DNA from: Aminivibrio sp.
Lineage (GTDB): Bacteria; Synergistota; Synergistia; Synergistales; Aminobacteriaceae
Direction: 5' to 3'
Length of the DNA: 49,182 bases
Assembly: GCA_050946755.1 (NCBI GenBank)
Contig: JBMNVK010000001.1
Span: 1 to 49,182, forward strand
Part shown: positions 22,129 to 32,246 of the stretch, in pieces
How the letters are laid out: each line of letters starts with the position of its first letter
How positions within the stretch are numbered: position 1 is the first letter of the stretch
Notes under the pieces: generated by a model
What the model was told of the DNA's origin: nothing
Seen by the model: the letters and a program-made list of their open reading frames with translations, nothing else
The model's database searches: none
Made by a program: the position numbers and the translations under genes

Positions 22129-22174
22129 AAAACTCTTGAAATGGCCTCTAACATATAAAAATAATTCTAAAGCC

Positions 22175-22202
22175 TTGACTCCCGCTGTTTTTTGTGTAAA
22201 AT
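22175..22202 (+). promoter_or_regulatory. Sigma-70-type tRNA promoter, left copy
   Basis: TTGACT-16 bp-TAAAAT, ending 27 nt upstream of the tRNA fragment. Confidence 0.75.
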
Positions 22203-22229
22203 TAGCACTTGCGCACGCCGGAAAGAGTC

Positions 22230-22270
22230 GAGCCGTTAGCTCAGTCGGCAGAGCACCGGACTTTTAATCC
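22230..22270 (+). pseudogene. 5' half of tRNA-Lys(UUU), nt 1-41, truncated in the 3' strand of the anticodon stem
   Basis: GAGCCGTTAGCTCAGTCGGCAGAGCACCGGACTTTTAATCC, then unrelated sequence. No T-arm or acceptor 3' strand. Confidence 0.93.
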
Positions 22271-22371
22271 TTAAAGGAAAAATGAAATCTGTAAACCCTT
22301 GCAAATACTGCCTTTTCGGTTTTCAAGGTGCATTTTAAGCGCAACGGACTTGTTTTTACGGGGTTAACATT

Positions 22372-22408
22372 TGACGTCTCCTGACCAACCAGGGGGCGTC
22401 ATTTTTTT
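22372..22408 (+). terminator. Intrinsic terminator inside the element's left end
   Basis: TGACGTCTCCTG-ACCAAC-CAGGGGGCGTCA (12-bp stem with two G-U pairs) followed by T7. Confidence 0.8.
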
Positions 22409-22459
22409 ATGTCCGAACGGCTCCTGATGGAGGCGCCGCCGGGCATACTGTGAGCATAC

Positions 22460-23491
22460 TTATTGCCCCTTCTCTGGTGCGGGCTTTTCCCCCCACCATT
22501 CATCAAAGCCAACTAAAAAGGTTGTTGCCCCCTTCCGACCTTCCTTGACGGTCTTTCCTTCCCGGGCAGCTCGATCCCGCTTCCGCTTTTGTTCGGAAAA
22601 TCGGCGCAACATGTCACGGTGATAATGGTGTCCCTTGTATGGTCCGGTCTTTTTCCGCCACATTATTTTTTCCCCCGCGCTGTTTCGCTCTCTGCAGTAG
22701 ATCCCGGTCAATACGCACCGCCGTACTATTTCCTCCGCCGGTCCATCTCCAAAGAAGCTTTGCGACAATTGAAGCCAGACCGCTCCAAGGAGGCTAAGAG
22801 GCGTTAGGAGTGACTTGTAAATTCCATCCTGCATTTTGTGCGATACGGTCAGGGGAGCTTTCGCCATTCGCTCGTCCAAAAAAGCCCCTAAAAGCGCCTT
22901 GGCAATTAACTTTCTGGGGTCGGGTGTTTTTACAAGCAGGCGGATACTCCGAGACTCCCACTCATTGACGCGGACGTTCAAACACGCCATTCTCCCGTTA
23001 ACAGTCATAGGCAGCTCCTTGCCCATCTCGAAGTCCCCCCGAAGCTCCAGGAACCGCCGGACAATGGCAATTTCTTGCCGCCAGGTCGCGATCATCTCAA
23101 GGCTGATTCTGTAGGGTATGCCCTGCACGCAGACGGTATGCCGCAGGTTCCCGTATTTTCCCGCGAAACTCAAAATATCCGCGTCGGTTTTAAGACTCGC
23201 GAACTGCTGAAACAACGGCTCCTCACCGTTGAAGTAGGCATGCAAACAATTGACGGCTGAAGCTGGCGGTCCCTTGGGGAGCAGCAGCATAGGGCGTATC
23301 TTTTTAGCATCCTCCAGGGGCATGTCCTCAGCGAAGGGAAAGACCGGGAGCGTATCATCTGCCTTTCCGCCAAGGATGCGCCGAGTAGACACCTGCTCCC
23401 CCGCCTCGATCAGCTCGAAGCCCCCTTGATAAATCACGTTGAAAAACTCAGACTCCTGCGGAGCTTCAATAAAACCTTCCAGAGATTCCAT
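22460..23491 (-). CDS. Hypothetical element protein, possible DNA-binding regulator
   Basis: 343 aa ORF divergent from the HTH gene. The segment SLLGAVWLQL...IVRRCVLTGIYC is loosely reminiscent of CGNR/ABATE-type zinc-finger proteins. Basic C-terminus. Confidence 0.7.
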   Translation of the reverse strand: MESLEGFIEAPQESEFFNVIYQGGFELIEAGEQVSTRRILGGKADDTLPVFPFAEDMPLEDAKKIRPMLLLPKGPPASAVNCLHAYFNGEEPLFQQFASLKTDADILSFAGKYGNLRHTVCVQGIPYRISLEMIATWRQEIAIVRRFLELRGDFEMGKELPMTVNGRMACLNVRVNEWESRSIRLLVKTPDPRKLIAKALLGAFLDERMAKAPLTVSHKMQDGIYKSLLTPLSLLGAVWLQLSQSFFGDGPAEEIVRRCVLTGIYCRERNSAGEKIMWRKKTGPYKGHHYHRDMLRRFSEQKRKRDRAAREGKTVKEGRKGATTFLVGFDEWWGEKPAPEKGQ

Positions 23492-23695
23492 TCATGTTTC
23501 CCCCTAAAAAGATGACCACTTCACCCACCTGTGATTTTACATCCCAGCATCGGATAATTCAAGTACCACAAATAAATAAGCGCCGAGCTGCTCCGGACGC
23601 TAGAGCGGCAAGCCGGGAACCAGACCAGAACGGAGATATCCGACTCGTGTGACAACCGGAGCAGAAATAAAAAAATTAAATGGAGGTTTTTAAAA

Positions 23696-23929
23696 ATGAC
23701 GACTTTGATTCAGGCAGAACTCGAAAAACGGGATCGGAGTGTTCATTACATGCATAAGAAATTGGGCGGTAACAGGACGAGGGTATACGACGCTGCGCGG
23801 GGCTATGGCAGGGCAACGCTGCCTTTGAGGCAGAAAATAGCGGATTTTCTGGGTGTGCCTGTGGACGCGATTTTTAGCGAGGATGGATTTGCGCGGAAAG
23901 CAGTGTCACCCCCTAAAGCGGGAGATTGA
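23696..23929 (+). CDS. Small XRE/Cro-like HTH protein
   Basis: 77 aa with GGAGG RBS. Pattern SVHYMHKKLGGNRTRVY...RQKIADFLGVPVDAIF fits the XRE/Cro family. Confidence 0.75.
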   Translation: MTTLIQAELEKRDRSVHYMHKKLGGNRTRVYDAARGYGRATLPLRQKIADFLGVPVDAIFSEDGFARKAVSPPKAGD

Positions 23930-23942
23930 AGGAGGGACCACG

Positions 23943-24323
23943 ATGAAGCTGAAAGCGGGCGCAGTGTTGCGCATAGAAGCCGGAGACGAGAAGTTTTGCG
24001 TTGAGATCACAAAGGATGAGGTTTTTTTCCCAAGGGAGGAGGGCGGGATTTTCCGACTCGACAGCGATACTCGCGCGGTCCTTGTGGACGATACCGAAAT
24101 GAGCGTTCTGTCCGCTCTCGGGAAAGAGTTTTTCGGAATCGACCACAAGGCGGGCGGAGAAACCGCTGAGAGGCTGCGAATAAGGCGAGGCAACATTGAG
24201 GAATTTTTCAACGAAGATGGCTTTCCTATGAGAGGGCGATGGCTCGCGATTATCCCAGTTTGCATTTTCGAGCAGGTTTTTGCCGGTGAGATCAGATCCG
24301 AAAGGCTCCCGCCGTGGAAATAG
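23943..24323 (+). CDS. Hypothetical protein
   Basis: ATG at 23943 preceded by GGAGG (126 aa, MKLKAGAVLRIE...). Second gene of the rightward operon. Confidence 0.7.
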   Translation: MKLKAGAVLRIEAGDEKFCVEITKDEVFFPREEGGIFRLDSDTRAVLVDDTEMSVLSALGKEFFGIDHKAGGETAERLRIRRGNIEEFFNEDGFPMRGRWLAIIPVCIFEQVFAGEIRSERLPPWK

Positions 24324-24398
24324 AATAATGCCGCCCCTGGTTGCAGCCGGGAGCGGCAGGTTGCCCGGCGCGCGAACGCCGGAGAAAGGAAAATCCTC

Positions 24399-24488
24399 AT
24401 GAAAAAGTTTACCACGGAAATCATCTTTTGGGGCGCTATAGGTTTTCTTGTCGGTCTGGTTCCTTTCCTGGTGGGGATCACGCCATGA
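24399..24488 (+). CDS. 29-aa hydrophobic peptide (not in the ORF track)
   Basis: AAAGGA RBS. MKKFTTEIIFWGAIGFLVGLVPFLVGITP*. Stop overlaps the next ATG (ATGA). Confidence 0.55.
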   Translation: MKKFTTEIIFWGAIGFLVGLVPFLVGITP

Positions 24489-24973
24489 AGAAGGCTTTTC
24501 ATAACCACAAGGGCAAGGTATACGCCACGCTGGAAAACGGAGTTCTCCGGAAGAGCGAGCGCCAAAAAGATCGCCTGAAAGTCACCGGCGGCAGAGCTCA
24601 CGCCATTGATGCAGACCTTCTCTCCGAGGCTATTGGCGCGGGGGGACGGGTGCTCCAGATCCGCGAGAGGGGGCTTGCCGGCGAAGTGCGGATCTTCCAA
24701 ATCCAGCTTGAAGACATCCGCAGGTATGGACGGCGGTTGACTCTCGCCGGGGTTGCAAGGGTGACGGTCCCCCTGGAAAGATGCAAGCTCCTGCAAGGTC
24801 CGGAGGAGCCGTGGCGACTGCTTGCCAGGCAAGAGCACATCGAAGCCGAGGAACGGCGCGAGGAAACGGAGGCGGTCCAGGGGGATCAGCTGCAATTGTT
24901 CGAGATCTCCCCCTCGGAGATTCGCCAGGGTTACGAGCAGGGAACCTTTCCCCGCCAGAGGGCAGCGCCTTGA
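24485..24973 (+). CDS. Hypothetical phage-type protein
   Basis: ATG at 24485 (MKKAFHNHKGKVYATLENG...AHAIDADLL...), 162 aa, overlapping neighbours on both sides. Confidence 0.7.
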   Translation: MKKAFHNHKGKVYATLENGVLRKSERQKDRLKVTGGRAHAIDADLLSEAIGAGGRVLQIRERGLAGEVRIFQIQLEDIRRYGRRLTLAGVARVTVPLERCKLLQGPEEPWRLLARQEHIEAEERREETEAVQGDQLQLFEISPSEIRQGYEQGTFPRQRAAP

Positions 24974-25227
24974 AGATCGCCGAACTTATGCAGATTGCGG
25001 CGGGTCACTTCCCGGGTGACCAGGAGGCACTCGCCGACATTTTCCAGGCGGAGGTCGTCTGCTATGCTTGGCGATCCTTTGAAAAGGGCATGTCCTCCGC
25101 CGAGTGTTTGGGGGCTATCTGTGAAGAGCTCCCGCCGCTGACCGCAGAAGATGCCGCCGGGGTGCTGAGGTTGATCCTGCGGGAGTGGAAGATATTTTCT
25201 CTAGGAAAGCGTGGTGGTGGAGGGTGA
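24970..25227 (+). CDS. Hypothetical small helical protein
   Basis: TTG start overlapping the previous TGA. Stop overlaps the rep GTG (GTGA). 85 aa. Confidence 0.6.
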   Translation: MKIAELMQIAAGHFPGDQEALADIFQAEVVCYAWRSFEKGMSSAECLGAICEELPPLTAEDAAGVLRLILREWKIFSLGKRGGGG

Positions 25228-25982
25228 GTGATGATTGGTTCGCTTTGATACCGGCAGCCGTGTTTCTTGATCCTGACCTTAACGCTCATGAAAAATTGAC
25301 AGTATCTGTGCTCATTCTTCACCGGAATGCGGAGACCGGATGCAGTTTTCCGAGCATATCTCGAATGTCGAGGCTCGCTGGGTTGTCCGAAAAAACCGTT
25401 AAACGGGCGGTAGCCACACTTGAAAAGAAGGGCAAGGTTCTGGTGAAACGGAGGCTTTCTCCAAGTGGGGACTGGGACACTAATCTTTACTCATTGAGGG
25501 GGTGGGGTCTCACAGTCCCTACCTGGGGTCACACAGACCCTACCTCCGGTCAGGCAGACCCCAGGGTGGGGTCACACAGTCCCCAGGGGTGGGGTCTGAC
25601 AGACCCTCTAACATACCCATATAGACAAACCCAGAAACAAGAAAAGTCATCCCCTAAAAAGGGAGGTTCAAAGACTCTAAACCATAGGGGAAAAATTGAA
25701 GAGGCTTTCTCCATGTTCTGGCAGGTCTACCCTAAAAAACAGGGCAAGAGGGCGGCACTCGAAGAATTCAGCCGGCTGTTTCCCCTCGACCTTCCCGGCG
25801 AGACCCTAAATGCCAGGCTCCAAAACATCTGCGGGCAGGCTCTGCTTTATTCGGAATCGGTAGAGGGCACGGAGCCGAGATACATAAAAGCTCCGAAAAA
25901 TTGGCTCAAGGAATGCGATCCGGATGAAGCGGCGACCGTTGAGGTTGAAACCTGGGTCAGGGAGACGGAGGAGCCGCAATGA
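25224..25982 (+). CDS. Phage-type replication initiator (N-terminal wHTH, HTH_36/lambda O-like)
   Basis: FALIPAAVFLDPDLNAHEKL...SFPSISRMSRLAGLSEKTVKRAVATLEKKG...TNLYSL, internal iterons, and C-terminal FSMFWQVYPKKQGK...YIKAPKNWL. Likely GTG start at 25224. Confidence 0.85.
   Translation: MSDDWFALIPAAVFLDPDLNAHEKLTVSVLILHRNAETGCSFPSISRMSRLAGLSEKTVKRAVATLEKKGKVLVKRRLSPSGDWDTNLYSLRGWGLTVPTWGHTDPTSGQADPRVGSHSPQGWGLTDPLTYPYRQTQKQEKSSPKKGGSKTLNHRGKIEEAFSMFWQVYPKKQGKRAALEEFSRLFPLDLPGETLNARLQNICGQALLYSESVEGTEPRYIKAPKNWLKECDPDEAATVEVETWVRETEEPQ
25503..25606 (+). repeat. Five 17-bp iteron-like repeats (putative replication origin)
   Basis: TGGGGTCTCACAGTCCC, TGGGGTCACACAGACCC, TCCGGTCAGGCAGACCC, TGGGGTCACACAGTCCC, TGGGGTCTGACAGACCC at 25503/25524/25545/25567/25590, followed by an A-rich tract. 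Confidence 0.85.
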
Positions 25983-27337
25983 AACAGTTCTACGACTCCG
26001 CCGGCGCGCTCCGGATACTCAGGAACCTCGAAGCCTCTGACACGGAAGATGCCGCCGCGTTGAAGCTGGAGATCATCAAGTCGGAGGCTGAGACCCTGAT
26101 CCTCGAAAGATGCTTTACTCCTCTGGAGGCTTTAAGGGTTATGAGGGAGCTGAACGGCGCGACAAATCCCAGCATCCCGGACGCTGAAATATCAGAGGCA
26201 TTGACTGCCTTTCTGCATCACCGTTTGAGGGGGATGGACCGGGCGGACGCATTGCCCAAAACCGCAGAGACGATGTTTAGGGCGGCTGAGCAAGAAATCA
26301 AAATGCAGCGGGGGGCTGAGCCTGCGAAGCTGTATGTCCCCCTGCTTGACGAGGCGCTTCAAAGTGGGCTTTATCCGGGCTACGTCCTCGGGGTCACAGG
26401 GCATGAAGGCAGCCTGAAAAGCTCCCTCGCCCTCCATATAGCCGAAAAAAACACCTGGGAAAATCCGGCGGTCCGAACCTTGTTTGTCAGTTTGGATATG
26501 ACGGGGGAGATGTTAGCCTTCAGGCGGGTATCAAGATATTTGAACGTCCATGAGGCTACGGTCCGGGAGATGGCGCAGGCGGGAAGTCCTGACTACATTC
26601 AGGCGAAGGATGCGATTCGCAAGTGGGATGGCGGAAGGTTGTTTTTCGCCGGCGGTCCGATGACGCTGACGGGGCTTGTGGAGCAGGTGGGGATGACGCT
26701 GCCGAGTGTCGTTATTGTGGATTACATCAGCCTCCTGCAGGTGGAGGGCGAGGCGGACCAGTTCAAAGCCTTGAAAAAAGCCGTGGACGGGATACGAGAA
26801 CTCCGGGACCAAACGAAGGCAGTTTTTATTTTACTCTCGCAGATGTCCAGGGCATCCAAGACGGCGGCGAAGGCAGGGCAGACTGGGAGTCACGCCTTCG
26901 GCGGCTCGATCATTGAGCACCTTCTGGACGTGGAGATCGAGTTGATCATGGACGAACCTCTCGAAGAAGATGAACAGAGGCGGCTTGTTGCAACGGTCAC
27001 GAAGAACCGTTTCGGACAAGCGGGGGGCAGCTTTGAGGTGGAATATACGGGCATGAGCAAGCGCATCACGGGCAAGGCATGGAGGCTCAAACGAGAGAAG
27101 AAAGCGAAACCCGCCTTCGGCTCCCGGGAGAGTCTGTTTGATCTGCCGGACGCACCTACTGCGCCAAAGGAGGGCGACATTGAAACATGGCTGGAGCGGC
27201 ATCCTGAAATAAGGGATGAGCTTCTAGAGGAGGCGGAGAAAGCCTTCGATCCCCTACGTTATGACTCAGTGCTTCGAGGTCATGGCGCGGCAAAGATTCA
27301 AGGAGCACCAATAAAGGGGGGTGAGGAAAAATGGTAA
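25979..27337 (+). CDS. DnaB-like (SF4) replicative helicase
   Basis: Walker A GHEGSLKS, FVSLDM, Walker B VVIVDY, LLSQMSR, KNRFG. ATGA-coupled to the initiator gene. Confidence 0.85.
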   Translation: MKQFYDSAGALRILRNLEASDTEDAAALKLEIIKSEAETLILERCFTPLEALRVMRELNGATNPSIPDAEISEALTAFLHHRLRGMDRADALPKTAETMFRAAEQEIKMQRGAEPAKLYVPLLDEALQSGLYPGYVLGVTGHEGSLKSSLALHIAEKNTWENPAVRTLFVSLDMTGEMLAFRRVSRYLNVHEATVREMAQAGSPDYIQAKDAIRKWDGGRLFFAGGPMTLTGLVEQVGMTLPSVVIVDYISLLQVEGEADQFKALKKAVDGIRELRDQTKAVFILLSQMSRASKTAAKAGQTGSHAFGGSIIEHLLDVEIELIMDEPLEEDEQRRLVATVTKNRFGQAGGSFEVEYTGMSKRITGKAWRLKREKKAKPAFGSRESLFDLPDAPTAPKEGDIETWLERHPEIRDELLEEAEKAFDPLRYDSVLRGHGAAKIQGAPIKGGEEKW

Positions 27338-27567
27338 TTTCCATCAGCGAGTTCTACGCTTTGCGGCGAGATCTTAGCCTGAATTTTGCCGATGCGGCGC
27401 AAGCCCTTGGGGAGCGGCGGGCGGACGATCTGTCCCTAGGGTTGACCGAACTTACAACGGATGACCGCCGACGAATGAAAGACTACGCCGAGCAGCGGGA
27501 CGCTAAAATAGAACGGCTCCGGCAGGCAGAGCGAGACCGTATCCGTAATTTTTTCGGCGGAAGATGA
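27331..27567 (+). CDS. Hypothetical protein
   Basis: GAGG RBS, overlaps the helicase stop, followed by a terminator. Confidence 0.65.
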   Translation: MVISISEFYALRRDLSLNFADAAQALGERRADDLSLGLTELTTDDRRRMKDYAEQRDAKIERLRQAERDRIRNFFGGR

Positions 27568-27575
27568 TGATATTG

Positions 27576-27602
27576 CAGGGGGGATGCTTTCCCCCTGTTT
27601 TT
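27576..27602 (+). terminator. Intrinsic terminator closing the replication operon
   Basis: CAGGGGGGA-TGCT-TTCCCCCTG followed by T5. Confidence 0.75.
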
Positions 27603-27721
27603 GCGGGTGATGCGCCGTAGTCATTGCAATTGCCGAGGGTTGACGGAGCGCACCACCTCTCCGAACTAAAAGATGATAAAGTAAGGTGTGCTGATGAGCG
27701 TAAGCAGGGGGGAGAGTCAAA

Positions 27722-28195
27722 ATGACAACAAAAACCAAGAAACTCAAGGAGGGCGCCTTCTCCCCAAAGCAAGAAAAGGTTCTGGCGCTGCTTGTGGCGG
27801 GCAGTAGCCAGGTGGAGGCAGCACGGCTGAGCGGAACCGAACCGGCGACGGTTTCAAGGTGGATGCGAAACCTCGCCTTTAAGGGTGAGCTGCAGCGGCG
27901 GCGCGCCGAGGTGGTCGAGCTGATACGGTCCGACGTGGCGCAGGCTATACTGTGCGCACTTGAAGCGGTCCGGTCAGGGCTGGGCGATGAGGAAATTAGC
28001 GGAGCCGTGAGGCTTCAAACGGCATGCTCATTCCTGGGCAGGATGCTGCCGGGGCTTCTGCCCAAGGAGGAGGACTTCGAGGACATCTTGAAGCGCGAGA
28101 TTCGCGAGCGGGAGATGAGATCCGCTTTCCAACTGACGACCGCCGAGGGAATAATGAGCGAGGCAGAGCAGGAACTGAAGGAAAATGCCGAGTGA
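27722..28195 (+). CDS. HTH protein resembling the N-terminus of terminase small subunits
   Basis: FSPKQEKVLALLVAGSSQVEAARLSGTEPATVSRWMRNLAF...ELQRRR HTH, followed by amphipathic helices (AVRLQTACSFL). Confidence 0.65.
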   Translation: MTTKTKKLKEGAFSPKQEKVLALLVAGSSQVEAARLSGTEPATVSRWMRNLAFKGELQRRRAEVVELIRSDVAQAILCALEAVRSGLGDEEISGAVRLQTACSFLGRMLPGLLPKEEDFEDILKREIREREMRSAFQLTTAEGIMSEAEQELKENAE

Positions 28196-28614
28196 GCTTA
28201 GAGAGTCTCCAGGGGGTCGAATAGCGCCCTCTGAGCGCGTCCTTTTCCTGGGAGGGGTAGGAGGTCCATTGAACGCAGGTAGACGCGTCCAGGGTACCAT
28301 TTTGGGCACCCTGGGGAGCTTGGCGGCATACTCCATCCGGCAGAGGGTGGCAGATAGAAAAGGTACTTCCCAGCCTCAAGAAATCAGGGGTCGGATAGCG
28401 CGCGCCGATCCCCCGCACGAAAAATGAAAAAATCAGGTTTATATTTACTTTCAGGTACCAGAAAAAAACTTTAAATACCCTATAGGTACCATATCCGCCG
28501 GCATGCGGGTAGCATGCTGTTAGCATATGTCAGGGGGTGGGGTGACTGACGCCGTGGGGGGAAGATCAGCTCCGGGAATTTAGAAAATCTTGCCAGGATA
28601 AAATAGACCGGTTC

Positions 28615-28902
28615 ATGTCGCCCCTTGCGGAGAGGAAATTCCGCGCGTGGATTGAAGCCGTAACCGCTCCGCAGCCTACGGGTGAAAGGGTCATGCAGTC
28701 CCGGGGGAGCTTGCACGCCGAGAGATTTGTGGACGCGGTTTTAGCCTTTGAGGCAGAGCGAGCCGCACGGGTCAACGAGCTTCAAAGACAAATTGACCGG
28801 GTGGATGTCGCCCTTGAGATGGCAGAGCATTTCAGGACAGGGGGCGAAGCCTTGCGGTGGATTTGGGGTGATGAACCTGTCCCGGGCGAGGAGATACCCT
28901 AG
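28615..28902 (+). CDS. Hypothetical helical/coiled-coil protein
   Basis: 95 aa ORF converging on the 28930-28961 hairpin. No clear RBS. Confidence 0.5.
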   Translation: MSPLAERKFRAWIEAVTAPQPTGERVMQSRGSLHAERFVDAVLAFEAERAARVNELQRQIDRVDVALEMAEHFRTGGEALRWIWGDEPVPGEEIP

Positions 28903-28929
28903 GGGTTGAATCTCCGCCGGGAAGGGATG

Positions 28930-28961
28930 AAAAAAGCCCCTCCGGCAATACGGAAGGGCTT
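28930..28961 (-). terminator. Intrinsic terminator for the leftward small-gene operon
   Basis: Minus strand reads AAGCCCTTCCG-TATTGC-CGGAGGGGCTT then TTTT, 15 nt after the 56-aa ORF stop. Confidence 0.75.
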
Positions 28962-28975
28962 CTCCCTGCGGGGGC

Positions 28976-29146
28976 TTATAGCCGTTCAGCCTCCTCCAGG
29001 AAGGACAGGAAGTATTCCCGTCCTCGGGGTGTAACATGAACGGCATACCTCTCCCCTATGATTATCATGTCCTCTTTGATGAGCTGCCGGACCTTCTCAA
29101 GGTGGAGCCGGGTTAAAGCCAGAGTAGCCGCCTTTTCGTCAACCAT
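28976..29146 (-). CDS. 56-aa protein with winged-helix-like tail (not in the ORF track)
   Basis: GAGGAGG RBS. MVDEKAATLALTRLHLEKVRQLIKEDMIIIGERYAVHVTPRGREYFLSFLEEAERL*. Starts 2 nt after the upstream stop and ends just before a terminator. Confidence 0.65.
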   Translation of the reverse strand: MVDEKAATLALTRLHLEKVRQLIKEDMIIIGERYAVHVTPRGREYFLSFLEEAERL

Positions 29147-29148
29147 GG

Positions 29149-29463
29149 TTAAGCCTCCTCGATGAGGTCAGAAAAATATTCCTCGATGTCCTCCGGGGCA
29201 AGATGCTCCTGTGCCCAATTCAAAGCCTCCTCACGGCTCAACGGGATTATTCCCTCTCCCCCGCAGGTACCGCCGCCGTAGGCGGGGCGTCCGTAATGGC
29301 TGAGCGGTCCGCCTTCCCCGGCAAGAAAGAAATTCCCCCTGGGCGTCAGATATAATCCTTCGGAATAGTAGCGGAAATCTCCCCGGTAGACGTTCCCTCC
29401 TCCTTCGCCGATCAGGGCAGCCGTCTCCGTGTTGTAGATCTTCCCCTTGATGACTCTTTTCAT
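29149..29463 (-). CDS. Small phage-type hypothetical protein with an acidic C-terminus
   Basis: AGGAGG RBS. MKRVIKGKIYNTETA...LYLTPRGNFFLAGEGG...IIPLSREEALNWAQEH. The pattern is familiar to me from phage early-region proteins; function unknown. Confidence 0.8.
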   Translation of the reverse strand: MKRVIKGKIYNTETAALIGEGGGNVYRGDFRYYSEGLYLTPRGNFFLAGEGGPLSHYGRPAYGGGTCGGEGIIPLSREEALNWAQEHLAPEDIEEYFSDLIEEA

Positions 29464-29616
29464 TTTCTGCTCCTCCTTTTGGTGTGTCCTTCGCCCTTAC
29501 GGGTCGATGAGCGCCCCACAGAGGGGCGTAGCCTAACGCAGAGCACCCTAACTTTCCCAATTGGTACGAACCTATGCCTTGGTGTTAAATAATCGCTCCT
29601 GGGGCGTCCTGTGGCG

Positions 29617-30561
29617 TCACAGCCTCCTCATACGTTTATTTTTGGGCGTCACCTCCTCTCCCAGGATGGAGCGAATGACTCCCGCCTTATTGTGTCCCCG
29701 CCGGGTATCCTCATTTGTCAAATTGACATAATGCCGGGTCATTTGCATGGTGGAATGACCAAGGAGGGCTTGAACCGTGAAGGCGTCCGCTCCTCTCCGA
29801 AGAAGGAGGAGGGCGGCGGCATGGCGCAAAGAGTAGCTGGTAATGTCCAGTCCACACTTCTTGCCGTATTCCTTGATGCGCCGGGAATATTCCCTGACCG
29901 AAAAGGGGCGTCCGTCATAGGTGCAGAAAATGGGAACGTCTCCCCATGATGAGGGGCGAATGATTAGCAGTTTGTTTATCGCCGACACGGTGGGGGGTGA
30001 TATGGGTAGCGTCCTGGATGTTCTGGTTTTTGATACGGGGGCGCGGATCGTTACTCCTTCCTTCTCGGGGCGGTAGTCCTCCTGCATGAGCTGCAGCAAT
30101 TCGCCGGGGCGTATCCCCGTGTCCACTTGAAGCATCATGGCGGCATAGTCCCTAAGACCGGCATACGTCCTTTGATCCGGTTGTTCGAGTAGCCGGGCAA
30201 CCTCTTTTTCTTCCAGTTGAACGATCCTTCCCTGGGGGCGCCTTTTTGTTAGTCCCGCCAGGGGGTGACGGCTCCCACGAAAAAAGCCTTCGGCAATGAG
30301 CCAGTCCCAAAAAACTTTCAGGTAGGCGAAGCGGAGATTATAGGATGACGGGTTTTCGTAGGTGGCAAGAAATTCCATCGTCCTCTCCCTGGGGCGATCC
30401 AATGCGCCAGGATGACGGCGAAAGAATAATGAGAGGATGGCTTCATAGTCTCTTTGTGTACGCTGGGATATCCCTGAAGCCTTCTTGAAGTTGAGGAAAA
30501 GGGGTAAGACGTCCTCCGGTTGCAGGTCACGGTATTCCTTACGAATCGGCACGATGGACAT
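29617..30561 (-). CDS. int: Tyrosine recombinase/integrase
   Basis: DTGIRPGELL (catalytic R), SKTRTSR (K), YSLRH, LLGHSTMQMTRHY (H, Y). AGGAGG RBS. Adjacent to attR. Confidence 0.95.
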   Translation of the reverse strand: MSIVPIRKEYRDLQPEDVLPLFLNFKKASGISQRTQRDYEAILSLFFRRHPGALDRPRERTMEFLATYENPSSYNLRFAYLKVFWDWLIAEGFFRGSRHPLAGLTKRRPQGRIVQLEEKEVARLLEQPDQRTYAGLRDYAAMMLQVDTGIRPGELLQLMQEDYRPEKEGVTIRAPVSKTRTSRTLPISPPTVSAINKLLIIRPSSWGDVPIFCTYDGRPFSVREYSRRIKEYGKKCGLDITSYSLRHAAALLLLRRGADAFTVQALLGHSTMQMTRHYVNLTNEDTRRGHNKAGVIRSILGEEVTPKNKRMRRL

Positions 30562-30653
30562 TAAACATCAACCTCCTGGGGGTTTACAATTCCCGAAAAG
30601 GCGATATTTTTTAAGGGCACCGGACTATTTTCCTTTTTGCTGTGAAGGGTTAA

Positions 30654-31903
30654 GGAATCTCTGATCATGTATCATTTTCCGTAGCAACAGCAGATCTTTG
30701 ACAATAAAATCCGATTTCCGCTCTCTCTTAATCTAAATTATTGGCTAAAATAGACTTTTAACCGCCTTTTACCCTTTTTTACCCTCCTTGAGGCGGTTTT
30801 CCCAGTCTTTTAGCTGCATATGGACACAATCCACCCCTATATAGGGTTCATACTGTACAAGAGACGATCCCTGACCATGTAGATGTTCGCAAGGGCAAAC
30901 TGAACGTTAAGATAGGCGGAGTTCTTTGCAAGACCTCTGTAACGAACCTTGTTAAATCCGAATATGCGCTTGACCACCAGAAATATGTGCTCCACCCTGC
31001 TGCGGGTTCGGGATAATTCACGGTTCCGCTCAATCTCCTCTTCCGTCAGCTTTCTGTTTCTGCAGCCTCGCTTCTGCGTCAGATCAACGGCACAAGGAGC
31101 TCTACCTTTTATCTCCTTCGTTTTACCCATGTAGGCGGAGTCGCCGTAGACTTCAGTCTCGTTCCCCCTTAACAGGTCTCCTATAACCCTGGAGTCGTGG
31201 ACGTTGGCCGGGGTTGTGACCAGGGTGTGGACCGTCTTTGTGTCCCTGTCCACTCCTACGTGGGCCTTCATACCGAAGTAGTACTGGTTGCCCTTTTTTG
31301 TTGAGCGCATTTCGGGATCACGCTTATTTTCTGCGTTCTTTGTGGAGGAGGGGGCGGATATGATAGTGGCGTCCACTATGGTTCCCTTTGACAGCCTTAC
31401 GCCCCGCTCTTCAAGGTGGATGTTGACCTCTTCGAAGATCTTCTCGGCAAGGCCGTTGGACTCCAGGAGGTGGCGAAATTTGCAGATGGTGGTCTCATCC
31501 GGAACGGGTTCTTTCCCGAGGTCTATACCGACGAAACGTCGCATGGATTCCACGTCGTAGAGAATCTCCTCGGCCGCAGGGTCGCTCAAGGCGAACCAGT
31601 GCTGAAGAAAGTGGATTCTCAGCATTCTTTCCACCCCAACCGGGGGCCGTCCCCTGCCTTTTTTTGGGTAGAATGGTTCAATGAGTTCGCAGAGCCTCTT
31701 CCATGGAACGATCTTTTCCATGGAGTCGAGGAACTTCTCCCTTCGGGTGGGCTTTCTGTATTTTTCGAAGGGTTTAAGGTCTGCAAGAGTTCTCTGTCTA
31801 TTCATCGGTCACAACCTTCTCTTTGGGATAAGAGTGGAAACAGCTATTATGACAATATTATATGCCGAGTGAGACGCTTTAAGGCGACTTAATCAGAGAT
31901 TCC
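30654..31903 (-). mobile_element. IS5-family insertion sequence, 1250 bp
   Basis: Terminal inverted repeats GGAATCTCTGATCATGT / GGAATCTCTGATTAAGT (15/17). TTAA target duplication at 30650-30653 and 31904-31907. Confidence 0.95.
30837..31805 (-). CDS. IS5-family DDE transposase
   Basis: TRREKFL, GRPP, LQHWFALSDP, PDETTICKFR, IVDATII, FGMKAHVGVD, GDSAY, RSRVEHIF, VRYRGLAKN. ORF appears intact. Confidence 0.96.
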   Translation of the reverse strand: MNRQRTLADLKPFEKYRKPTRREKFLDSMEKIVPWKRLCELIEPFYPKKGRGRPPVGVERMLRIHFLQHWFALSDPAAEEILYDVESMRRFVGIDLGKEPVPDETTICKFRHLLESNGLAEKIFEEVNIHLEERGVRLSKGTIVDATIISAPSSTKNAENKRDPEMRSTKKGNQYYFGMKAHVGVDRDTKTVHTLVTTPANVHDSRVIGDLLRGNETEVYGDSAYMGKTKEIKGRAPCAVDLTQKRGCRNRKLTEEEIERNRELSRTRSRVEHIFLVVKRIFGFNKVRYRGLAKNSAYLNVQFALANIYMVRDRLLYSMNPI

Positions 31904-31937
31904 TTAAGAAAAGAATCTTTTTGTAAGGTAGGGAGTT

Positions 31938-32037
31938 AGCCTTGACTCCCGCTGTTTTTTGTGTAAAATTAGCACTTGCGCACGCCGGAAAGAGTCGAGC
32001 CGTTAGCTCAGTCGGCAGAGCACCGGACTTTTAATCC
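31938..32037 (+). repeat. attR: 100-bp direct repeat reconstituting the promoter and intact tRNA-Lys
   Basis: Identical to 22171-22270. Confidence 0.95.
31942..31969 (+). promoter_or_regulatory. Sigma-70-type promoter of the tRNA Lys-Glu-Thr operon, right copy
   Basis: TTGACT-16 bp-TAAAAT. Confidence 0.78.
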
Positions 32038-32072
32038 GGGTGTCGTGGGTTCGACTCCCACACGGCTCACCA
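31997..32072 (+). tRNA. tRNA-Lys (anticodon UUU)
   Basis: 76 nt. Acceptor GAGCCGT/ACGGCTC, anticodon arm CCGGA-CTTTTAA-TCCGG, GTTCGA T-loop, CCA end. Confidence 0.98.
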
Positions 32073-32079
32073 GCTTTGC

Positions 32080-32155
32080 GGTCCCATCGTCTAGTGGCCT
32101 AGGACACAGCCCTTTCAAGGCTGCGACACGGGTTCAAATCCCGTTGGGACCGCCA
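32080..32155 (+). tRNA. tRNA-Glu (anticodon UUC)
   Basis: 76 nt. GGTCCCA/TGGGACC, CAGCC-CTTTCAA-GGCTG, GTTCAA, CCA end. Confidence 0.98.
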
Positions 32156-32170
32156 TTTTTTTGTATATTG

Positions 32171-32246
32171 GCCGGTGTAGCTCAGTTGGCAGAGCAGCGC
32201 ACTCGTAATGCGCAGGTCTGCGGTTCGAGTCCGCACACCGGCTCCA
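32171..32246 (+). tRNA. tRNA-Thr (anticodon CGU)
   Basis: 76 nt. GCCGGTG/CACCGGC, GCGCA-CTCGTAA-TGCGC, GTTCGA, CCA end. Confidence 0.98.

Follow-up and report, generated by a model that had tools for sequence, protein, structure and literature searches.

The 49,182-nucleotide stretch analysed here (contig JBMNVK010000001.1 of Aminivibrio sp., a bacterium of anaerobic digesters, positions 1 to 49,182, hereafter the window) contains a small genomic island between argH and a cluster of tRNA genes. The island is a real and intact member of an apparently undescribed family of islands in the phylum Synergistota that resemble the phage-inducible chromosomal islands (PICIs), one among many similar islands. 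It likely works as a phage satellite of the type of the Staphylococcus aureus pathogenicity islands (SaPIs), a reading given a probability of about 0.65: it would excise, replicate from iterons within its rep gene with its own helicase and be packaged by a helper phage under the direction of its predicted small terminase subunit (TerS). Since it possesses genes for integration, replication and, likely, packaging and none for a virus shell, it probably spreads by hijacking a phage. The replicon, an initiator of the lambda O type with a DnaB-like helicase (O+DnaB), is a less distinctive trait of these elements than their attachment (att) site, which carries a tRNA promoter together with the 5' part of the tRNA gene, a feature absent from the first-pass annotation of the window. 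No description of this family, in Synergistota and with a promoter-carrying 5' att, was found in the literature searched. If the reading is true these are the first candidate phage satellites for the Synergistota, a little-studied phylum with few genetic tools, the members of which ferment amino acids in anaerobic digesters and guts.

The boundaries of the island are set by two 100-bp direct repeats, 100% identical and spaced 9767 bp apart (Table 1), in a 2.2-Mb, 95%-complete genome. The empty site was seen in the four congeneric genomes examined (G002, G005, G006 and G009), where the tRNA-Lys-Glu-Thr cluster runs uninterrupted after argH. An insertion sequence (IS) of the IS5 family and its TTAA duplication account for 1254 bp, the IS-free island measuring 8513 bp, and exactly 1254 bp are skipped by one contig of the independent sequencing run X4 (depth 4; 64 letters on the short side). 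This IS-free joint marks the IS5 as a recent passenger, and the repeats, the TTAA duplication and the X4 contig bear out the unit of 9767 bp, or 8513 bp without IS5 and target-site duplication, that had been proposed from the sequence. The position of the IS5 close to attR may hamper the activity of this one copy. Pieces of the island with 99-100% identity were present in runs X2, X4, X5 and X6. In X2, X4 and X5 the contig carrying the IS5 was about four- to six-fold deeper than those of the island, consistent with several copies of the IS5 in these communities. The joint of an excised circle (attP) was not listed in two sequence-run searches, which covered assembled contigs only, and these are broken by the 100-bp repeat.

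Of 268 genomes of the phylum, 34 had a match to the integrase at E≤1e-55. The loci compared comprised 36 neighbourhoods fetched from 58 listed integrase matches, with long contigs favoured, 20 regions found by helicase or DNA matches, and 60 helicase loci. Twenty elements, the window's included, proved to be bounded by direct repeats; they are tRNA islands of 5.6-16.8 kb (L145 and L132, with weak or unsure repeats, are excluded). Within this set the integrase of L055 is more distant, and L128 and L129 are close relatives. The same compact layout occurs at different tRNAs in several families, and dN (nonsynonymous divergence) is below dS (synonymous divergence) in 16/16 gene pairs, with dS near saturation. 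None of the family proteins scanned (68, 142 and 60, from our own gene calls, the PHROGs scan covering elements other than L135 and L138) was a large terminase (TerL), portal, capsid or relaxase. For the window's element itself no match at E≤0.1 was obtained to capsid, portal, TerL, tail, lysis, relaxase or type IV secretion system (T4SS) genes among 16 open reading frames (ORFs) searched against Pfam and 15 against PHROGs, the 29-aa ORF excepted, in agreement with the first-pass annotation.

Integrases at least 50% identical to that of the window were found in Synergistota only (8/20 loci). A Pelotomaculum contig (L181:176-5055) has the same layout of int, TerS-like gene, Rep and the 162-aa hallmark protein ORF162, so that the design reaches the Bacillota, which suggests exchange between digester phyla. 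The look into viromes that had been proposed yielded only distant relatives of DnaB (26-37%) and Int (30-43%) in alignment scans of IMG/VR; single-protein scans with DnaB, Int and ORF162 gave nothing, a result that does not show absence from particles. One 13.5-kb IMG/VR contig (L190) combines a related integrase at tRNA-Leu with major head, TerL and portal genes and is a possible capsid-forming satellite.

A tRNA promoter inside the attachment site

The repeat begins 4 nt ahead of the -35 box of the tRNA-Lys promoter and stops just beyond the anticodon loop. The copy in attL is likely the original host copy, and that in attR likely came with the element. On this anatomy the tyrosine integrase, the annotation of which is confirmed by its Pfam match, likely crosses over in the anticodon loop, so that the promoter and the 5' half with which the tRNA-Lys-Glu-Thr unit is restored at attR would come from the element. 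The displaced host promoter at attL would then fire into a terminator, as a hairpin 3' of attL is predicted to halt read-through from it.

Among the 20 bounded elements the repeat takes this 5' form in 12; the whole tRNA is duplicated in four, the usual 3' form was found in three and no tRNA was called at one. As the elements are kin and not independent, no p-value is attached to the count of 12/20. The 5'-form repeats consist of 28-85 nt of upstream sequence plus the 5' part of a tRNA, and occur at seven tRNA types (Lys, SeC, Gly, Thr, Gln, Leu and Arg). Displacement of a tRNA 5' fragment to the upstream side is a configuration known from the Islander collection, where 5' tDNA fragments were reported in 159/3919 islands (4%) (PMC4383910). 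A promoter-carrying 5' att, rare there, is thus dominant here, with seven tRNA types and the promoter region included. For two elements (L035:7401-16033 and L120:1446-9165) the integration target is the sole selenocysteine tRNA gene, the promoter region of which they carry.

A second copy of tRNA sequence was detected next to the integrase gene. In 10/12 of the 5'-form elements the 12 nt preceding the anticodon of the target recur, at p<0.01 relative to shuffles, 38-81 nt 5' of int, and this half-site varies with the tRNA targeted; in L035 and L118 it was non-significant against shuffles. The window's version is predicted to be an extra Int binding site. A half-site that matches the tRNA points to recognition of the anticodon arm by the integrase, and hence to a promoter that would be supplied by the element. 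The two repeat copies are identical, whereas the congeners differ from them at 4, 9, 20 and 21 positions, so that the element's copy tracks its own host. The series of 5' att sites provides natural material on how tyrosine integrases change tRNA target and how attP is matched to the host, and the family integrases are candidate genome-insertion tools for Synergistota.

Replicons and small terminases as exchangeable modules

The initiator of the lambda O type with internal iterons and the DnaB-like helicase that had been annotated were both corroborated, the former by HTH_36, phrog_270 and the repeats themselves, the latter by PF03796 (Table 1). The helicase has 39 homologues. No primase was matched in this copy (Pfam, PHROGs), Rep and DnaB_C standing in its place. 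The iterons and A-rich stretch inside rep are the predicted replication origin, and repeats of other sequence occur at the same position of rep in five relatives (L055, L056, L061, L064 and L039). On the model of lambda O and P22, Rep would bind the iterons and load the adjacent DnaB, and host primase and polymerase would finish theta replication.

The replicons of the 20 bounded elements varied: four have Rep+DnaB, 11 are primase-type, one has Rep alone, two were unrecognised and two elements have none. The closest sister of the window's element, L035 (integrase 70% identical), has PrimPol and a D5-type primase-helicase in the same slot. Rep(O)+DnaB was accordingly rejected as a family marker, being found in only 4/20 elements when 11/20 have PICI-type primase-helicases. 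With Rep+DnaB, Rep alone, PrimPol+D5 or a Toprim primase-helicase in a single integrase lineage, the replicon is a poor marker for the detection of satellites; marine satellites are likewise variable in replicon (PMC9618062). The suggestion that the island fits no known family owing to its O+DnaB replicon is, as worded, unsupported in view of these observations and of the streptococcal homologue of its TerS and the DnaB and TerS of tycheposons discussed below. A second cluster of Rep+DnaB regions of 10-14 kb (L080, L083, L085-L088, L092, L097, L098 and L100) carries an XRE pair, RusA, an exonuclease and an endolysin/amidase; head genes were not found in the scanned proteins of L087 and L083, and the cluster may represent a defective prophage that has been conserved, or else a different kind of satellite.

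In 15 aligned elements a member of the ORF162 family immediately precedes the replicon, whatever the type of the latter. The structural model of ORF162 (model confidence pLDDT 90) resembled the fusellovirus nuclease D212 (Z 6.5, root-mean-square deviation 3.4, 88 aligned) and Hjc (Z 5.3), so that a PD-(D/E)XK nuclease-like fold is predicted, as a lead with middling Z; the family had no PHROG or PDB sequence match and no atlas feature match.

The 157-aa product 3' of the helicase, ORF157, is likely the TerS, as homology and context argue. Its single-sequence match to a TerS family is weak (phrog_3218, 9e-5), and the same family is matched by 6/7 aligned members of the ORF157 family. In a Foldseek search of its model (pLDDT 75) the top PDB match was 2AO9 (E 0.04), a putative nonameric TerS (PMC7672466). 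ORF157 matched 13/50,697 phage records, namely 12 streptococcal satellites and one unannotated 6.3-kb record; the homologue in Javan479 lies 3' of the helicase (hhalign 98%, 101 columns). A HMMER search gave 364 clusters, a word-index search ORF157 itself alone. A profile made from 124 of 150 listed relatives (length 100-200 aa) matched, in the IMG/VR prophage contigs L193-L195, a gene that stands two places ahead of TerL and portal (E 4e-11 to 9e-11), and a PDB profile search with the relatives gave weak matches to the helix-turn-helix (HTH) proteins KorA and HipB only. The fold, the satellite homologues and the prophage neighbourhoods together support the earlier description of a TerS-like HTH protein. 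By homology, the protein would pair with the TerL of a helper and guide packaging, which would begin at a site within the island. The non-coding gap 3' of terS had been called structured. Its folding is no better than that of shuffles (z -0.65 on the plus and -1.61 on the minus strand), Rfam matches were to tRNAs and their antisense only, with none in the gap, and a structured RNA there is rejected.

Three unrelated types of TerS occupy the slot 3' of the replicon: Terminase_2/phrog_51 (L055, L122), phrog_57 (L139) and the type of the window (L118, L142). TerS was also found in four partial elements (L061, L115, L116 and, twice, L140). That a single slot has captured distinct types repeatedly speaks for selection on packaging, and replicon and TerS alike are exchangeable modules within the Synergistota family.

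Known systems and alternative explanations

When set against the SatelliteFinder definition of PICIs (PMC10085698), the element has a size near the 9.5-kb median, an integrase with att sites, divergent regulators, a replication module followed by TerS, and no tail, holin or portal; 11/20 family members have primase-type replicons, and the inward-pointing int is a PICI trait (PMC10111431). The small terminase of the definition is present on homology and context, with weak single-sequence scores. It differs in having Rep-O and DnaB and no primase, in a left regulator that is CGNR/ABATE-like and not a recognised AlpA, MerR or Stl, and in an att that lies upstream of int and carries a tRNA promoter. 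A capsid-modifying gene is also missing, though this is optional and absent in SaPI-type variants (PMC10085698, the main text of which has 0 occurrences of 'Synerg'). The PLEs belong to Vibrio hosts, whereas the present host is one of the Synergistota. Psu, Delta, Sid, epsilon and the alpha primase-helicase of P4-like satellites were unmatched in the window (Pfam, PHROGs), as were the TerL, portal, capsid and head-tail connectors of capsid-forming PICIs and the relaxase and/or T4SS of integrative conjugative or mobilizable elements. Streptococcal satellite prophages (Javan479/519 and others) are of similar size and have the homologous TerS-like gene 3' of a helicase; their integrase (388 aa) and helicase are different, and searches of the phage collection with Rep, DnaB or Int revealed no other gene in common. 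The closest parallel at family level is with the tycheposons of Prochlorococcus (bioRxiv 10.1101/2020.12.28.424599), which have integrases that target tRNAs and both TerS-bearing and cargo-bearing members, and in which replication modules, a DnaB helicase profile among them, are swapped. The resemblance is one of layout only; the host phylum is another, and no promoter-carrying att was seen in them in the text cited. The island is thus best regarded as working like a SaPI-type PICI or a tycheposon; it is no new class and is not filed as a PICI member.

Several observations weigh against a satellite. The likely source run shows a flat contig depth (~7-8 for the island, 8.7 for the flank), with no sign of amplification. 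Four Pfam families for TerL and capsid had no match in this 95%-complete genome, and so no resident helper is identified. AlpA and MerR were not matched among the window's proteins (Pfam, PHROGs), and no classic Stl was recognised. The best PHROG match of ORF157 is a sigma factor (2e-5), no PDB match was obtained for it with Foldseek at E≤0.001, and one homologue (L164) lies beside a second, broken Terminase_2 gene and another on a plasmid-like contig (L166). A TerS was recognised in 6/20 bounded elements, a lower bound as not all ORFs were scanned, and some members carry metabolic or defence cargo in its place. The plasmid-like contig, the 14/20 elements with no recognised TerS and the cargo (glycine/betaine reductase, TRAP transporters, radical-SAM genes, AIPR and RloB) all favour a self-replicating integrative element that is no dedicated satellite and, in the manner of cargo tycheposons, is carried passively between cells through generalized transduction, vesicles or DNA uptake, with ORF157 a regulator or occasional passenger; S. 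thermophilus satellites can indeed move by competence (PMC13376191). This is considered unlikely, given three unrelated TerS types in the same slot, the relatives of ORF157 that precede TerL in prophages or occur in streptococcal satellites, and the lack of recognisable cargo in the window's element.

That the island is the deletion remnant of a prophage, retaining its early region and terS, is very improbable. The Rep+DnaB module does occur (30-36% identical) in larger prophage-like contigs, e.g. L046/L111, L051 and L113, relatives of the integrase (37-43% identity) are found in larger IMG/VR contigs including some of 36-62 kb, and a tape-measure-like gene is present in one sister with an unsure boundary, L132. 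Against this stand two perfect att sites, ORFs that are all intact, dN below dS, a compact layout that recurs at different tRNAs in several families, replicons swapped within a fixed slot and near-identical pieces in other samples. The existence of the family has largely refuted a remnant already, and the absence of capsid, portal, TerL and relaxase from scanned members makes a decayed prophage unlikely; the size range of the 20 bounded elements and the consistent excess of dS likewise uphold the original description of a compact satellite rather than a decayed prophage. Very little probability is given, too, to an integrative element with a cryptic oriT that a conjugative helper would mobilise in trans. 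Two distant Rep+DnaB relatives (L041 and L043) adjoin ORFs that by eye resemble MobC, relaxase and ParA, so that the replicon may also serve mobilisable elements, but Pfam searches of the window and of 60 sister proteins matched no relaxase or T4SS family, and the late slot is held by TerS.

If the satellite reading is extended to the family as a whole, a broader and rather doubtful proposal can be made. A phylum-wide family of satellites would enter tRNA genes from the 5' side, carrying a tRNA promoter copy that is continually renewed to match the host exactly, and the tRNA operon of the host would thereby run on a promoter borne by the element. It would retarget to at least seven tRNAs by way of a co-evolving extra Int site that mimics the anticodon arm, and swap four kinds of replicon and three of TerS, while its hallmark protein with the nuclease fold may attack helper DNA.

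Remaining genes and cargo

The divergent regulator pair of the first-pass annotation is present at the left end of the island. The 343-aa protein, which has homologues in L035 and L118 and no Pfam or PHROG match, lies in the position of Stl and is a candidate repressor; judged by position, it and the Cro-like HTH protein would form the switch that keeps the element quiescent.

Table 1. Features of the island and its borders, in window coordinates.
Feature	Position	Strand	Basis or remark
attL	22171..22270	+	tRNA-Lys promoter (-35 TTGACT 22175; -10 TAAAAT ending 22202) and 5' 41 nt of tRNA-Lys
Intrinsic-terminator-like hairpin and T run	22372..22408	+	12-bp stem; region z -3.1
343-aa CGNR/ABATE/DUF6076-like protein	22460..23491	-	atlas look-alikes CGNR zinc finger and DUF6076, lead only
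77-aa Cro-like HTH	23696..23929	+	divergent from 343-aa gene; phrog_769 0.0017; HTH_3 0.033 (weak)
126-aa protein	23943..24323	+	homologue in L038/L064 at 1e-5
29-aa hydrophobic peptide ORF	24399..24488	+	sequence only
ORF162, 162-aa family hallmark protein	24485..24973	+	just upstream of replicon; 15-member alignment
85-aa protein coupled to rep	24970..25227	+	homologues in L055, L056, L061, L038/L064
Lambda-O-like replication initiator Rep	25224..25982	+	HTH_36 2.4e-10; phrog_270 1.6e-24; start uncertain, 25185 or 25224
Iterons inside rep	25499..25607	+	~4-5 copies, GGGGTGGGGTC-type, ~22-nt spacing, then A-rich tract
DnaB-like superfamily 4 (SF4) helicase	25979..27337	+	PF03796 (DnaB_C) 1.5e-12; phrog_19 6e-21; Walker A variant GHEGSLKS
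78-aa protein	27331..27567	+	no homologue among fetched loci
ORF157, likely small terminase of phBC6A51/2AO9 type	27722..28195	+	homology and context
Non-coding gap 3' of terS	28196..28614	.	packaging-site candidate by position only
95-aa conserved protein	28615..28902	+	homologues in L035, L055, L122
56-aa protein	28976..29146	-	homologue in L038/L064 at 7e-10
104-aa conserved protein	29149..29463	-	homologues in L035 and L055, ~1e-33 to 1e-31
Tyrosine integrase, 314 aa, SAM-like and catalytic domain	29617..30561	-	PF00589 2e-29; transcribed inward from attR
Copy of 5' strand of tRNA anticodon arm	30615..30626	+	11/12 match; 53 nt upstream of int
IS5-family element	30654..31903	-	transposase 30837-31805; TTAA duplicated at 30650-30653 and 31904-31907
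attR	31938..32037	+	promoter (-35 at 31942; -10 ending 31969) and 5' half of rebuilt tRNA-Lys
Host tRNA-Lys(TTT), tRNA-Glu(TTC), tRNA-Thr(CGT) cluster	31997..32246	+	tRNA calls, Rfam

Cargo was observed in several relatives. The metabolic cargo of a 13.5-kb element at tRNA-Gly (L105:186-13792) includes glycine/betaine reductase genes (GRDB, component B), and defence-type cargo (AIPR, AbiEii-like AAA and RloB) adjoins the integrase in L142:2864-7131. Radical-SAM gene pairs, possibly parts of peptide-modification clusters, are the cargo of L126 and L135. The tape-measure-like gene of L132 (1288-4017) is a lone one, in an element of 15 kb.

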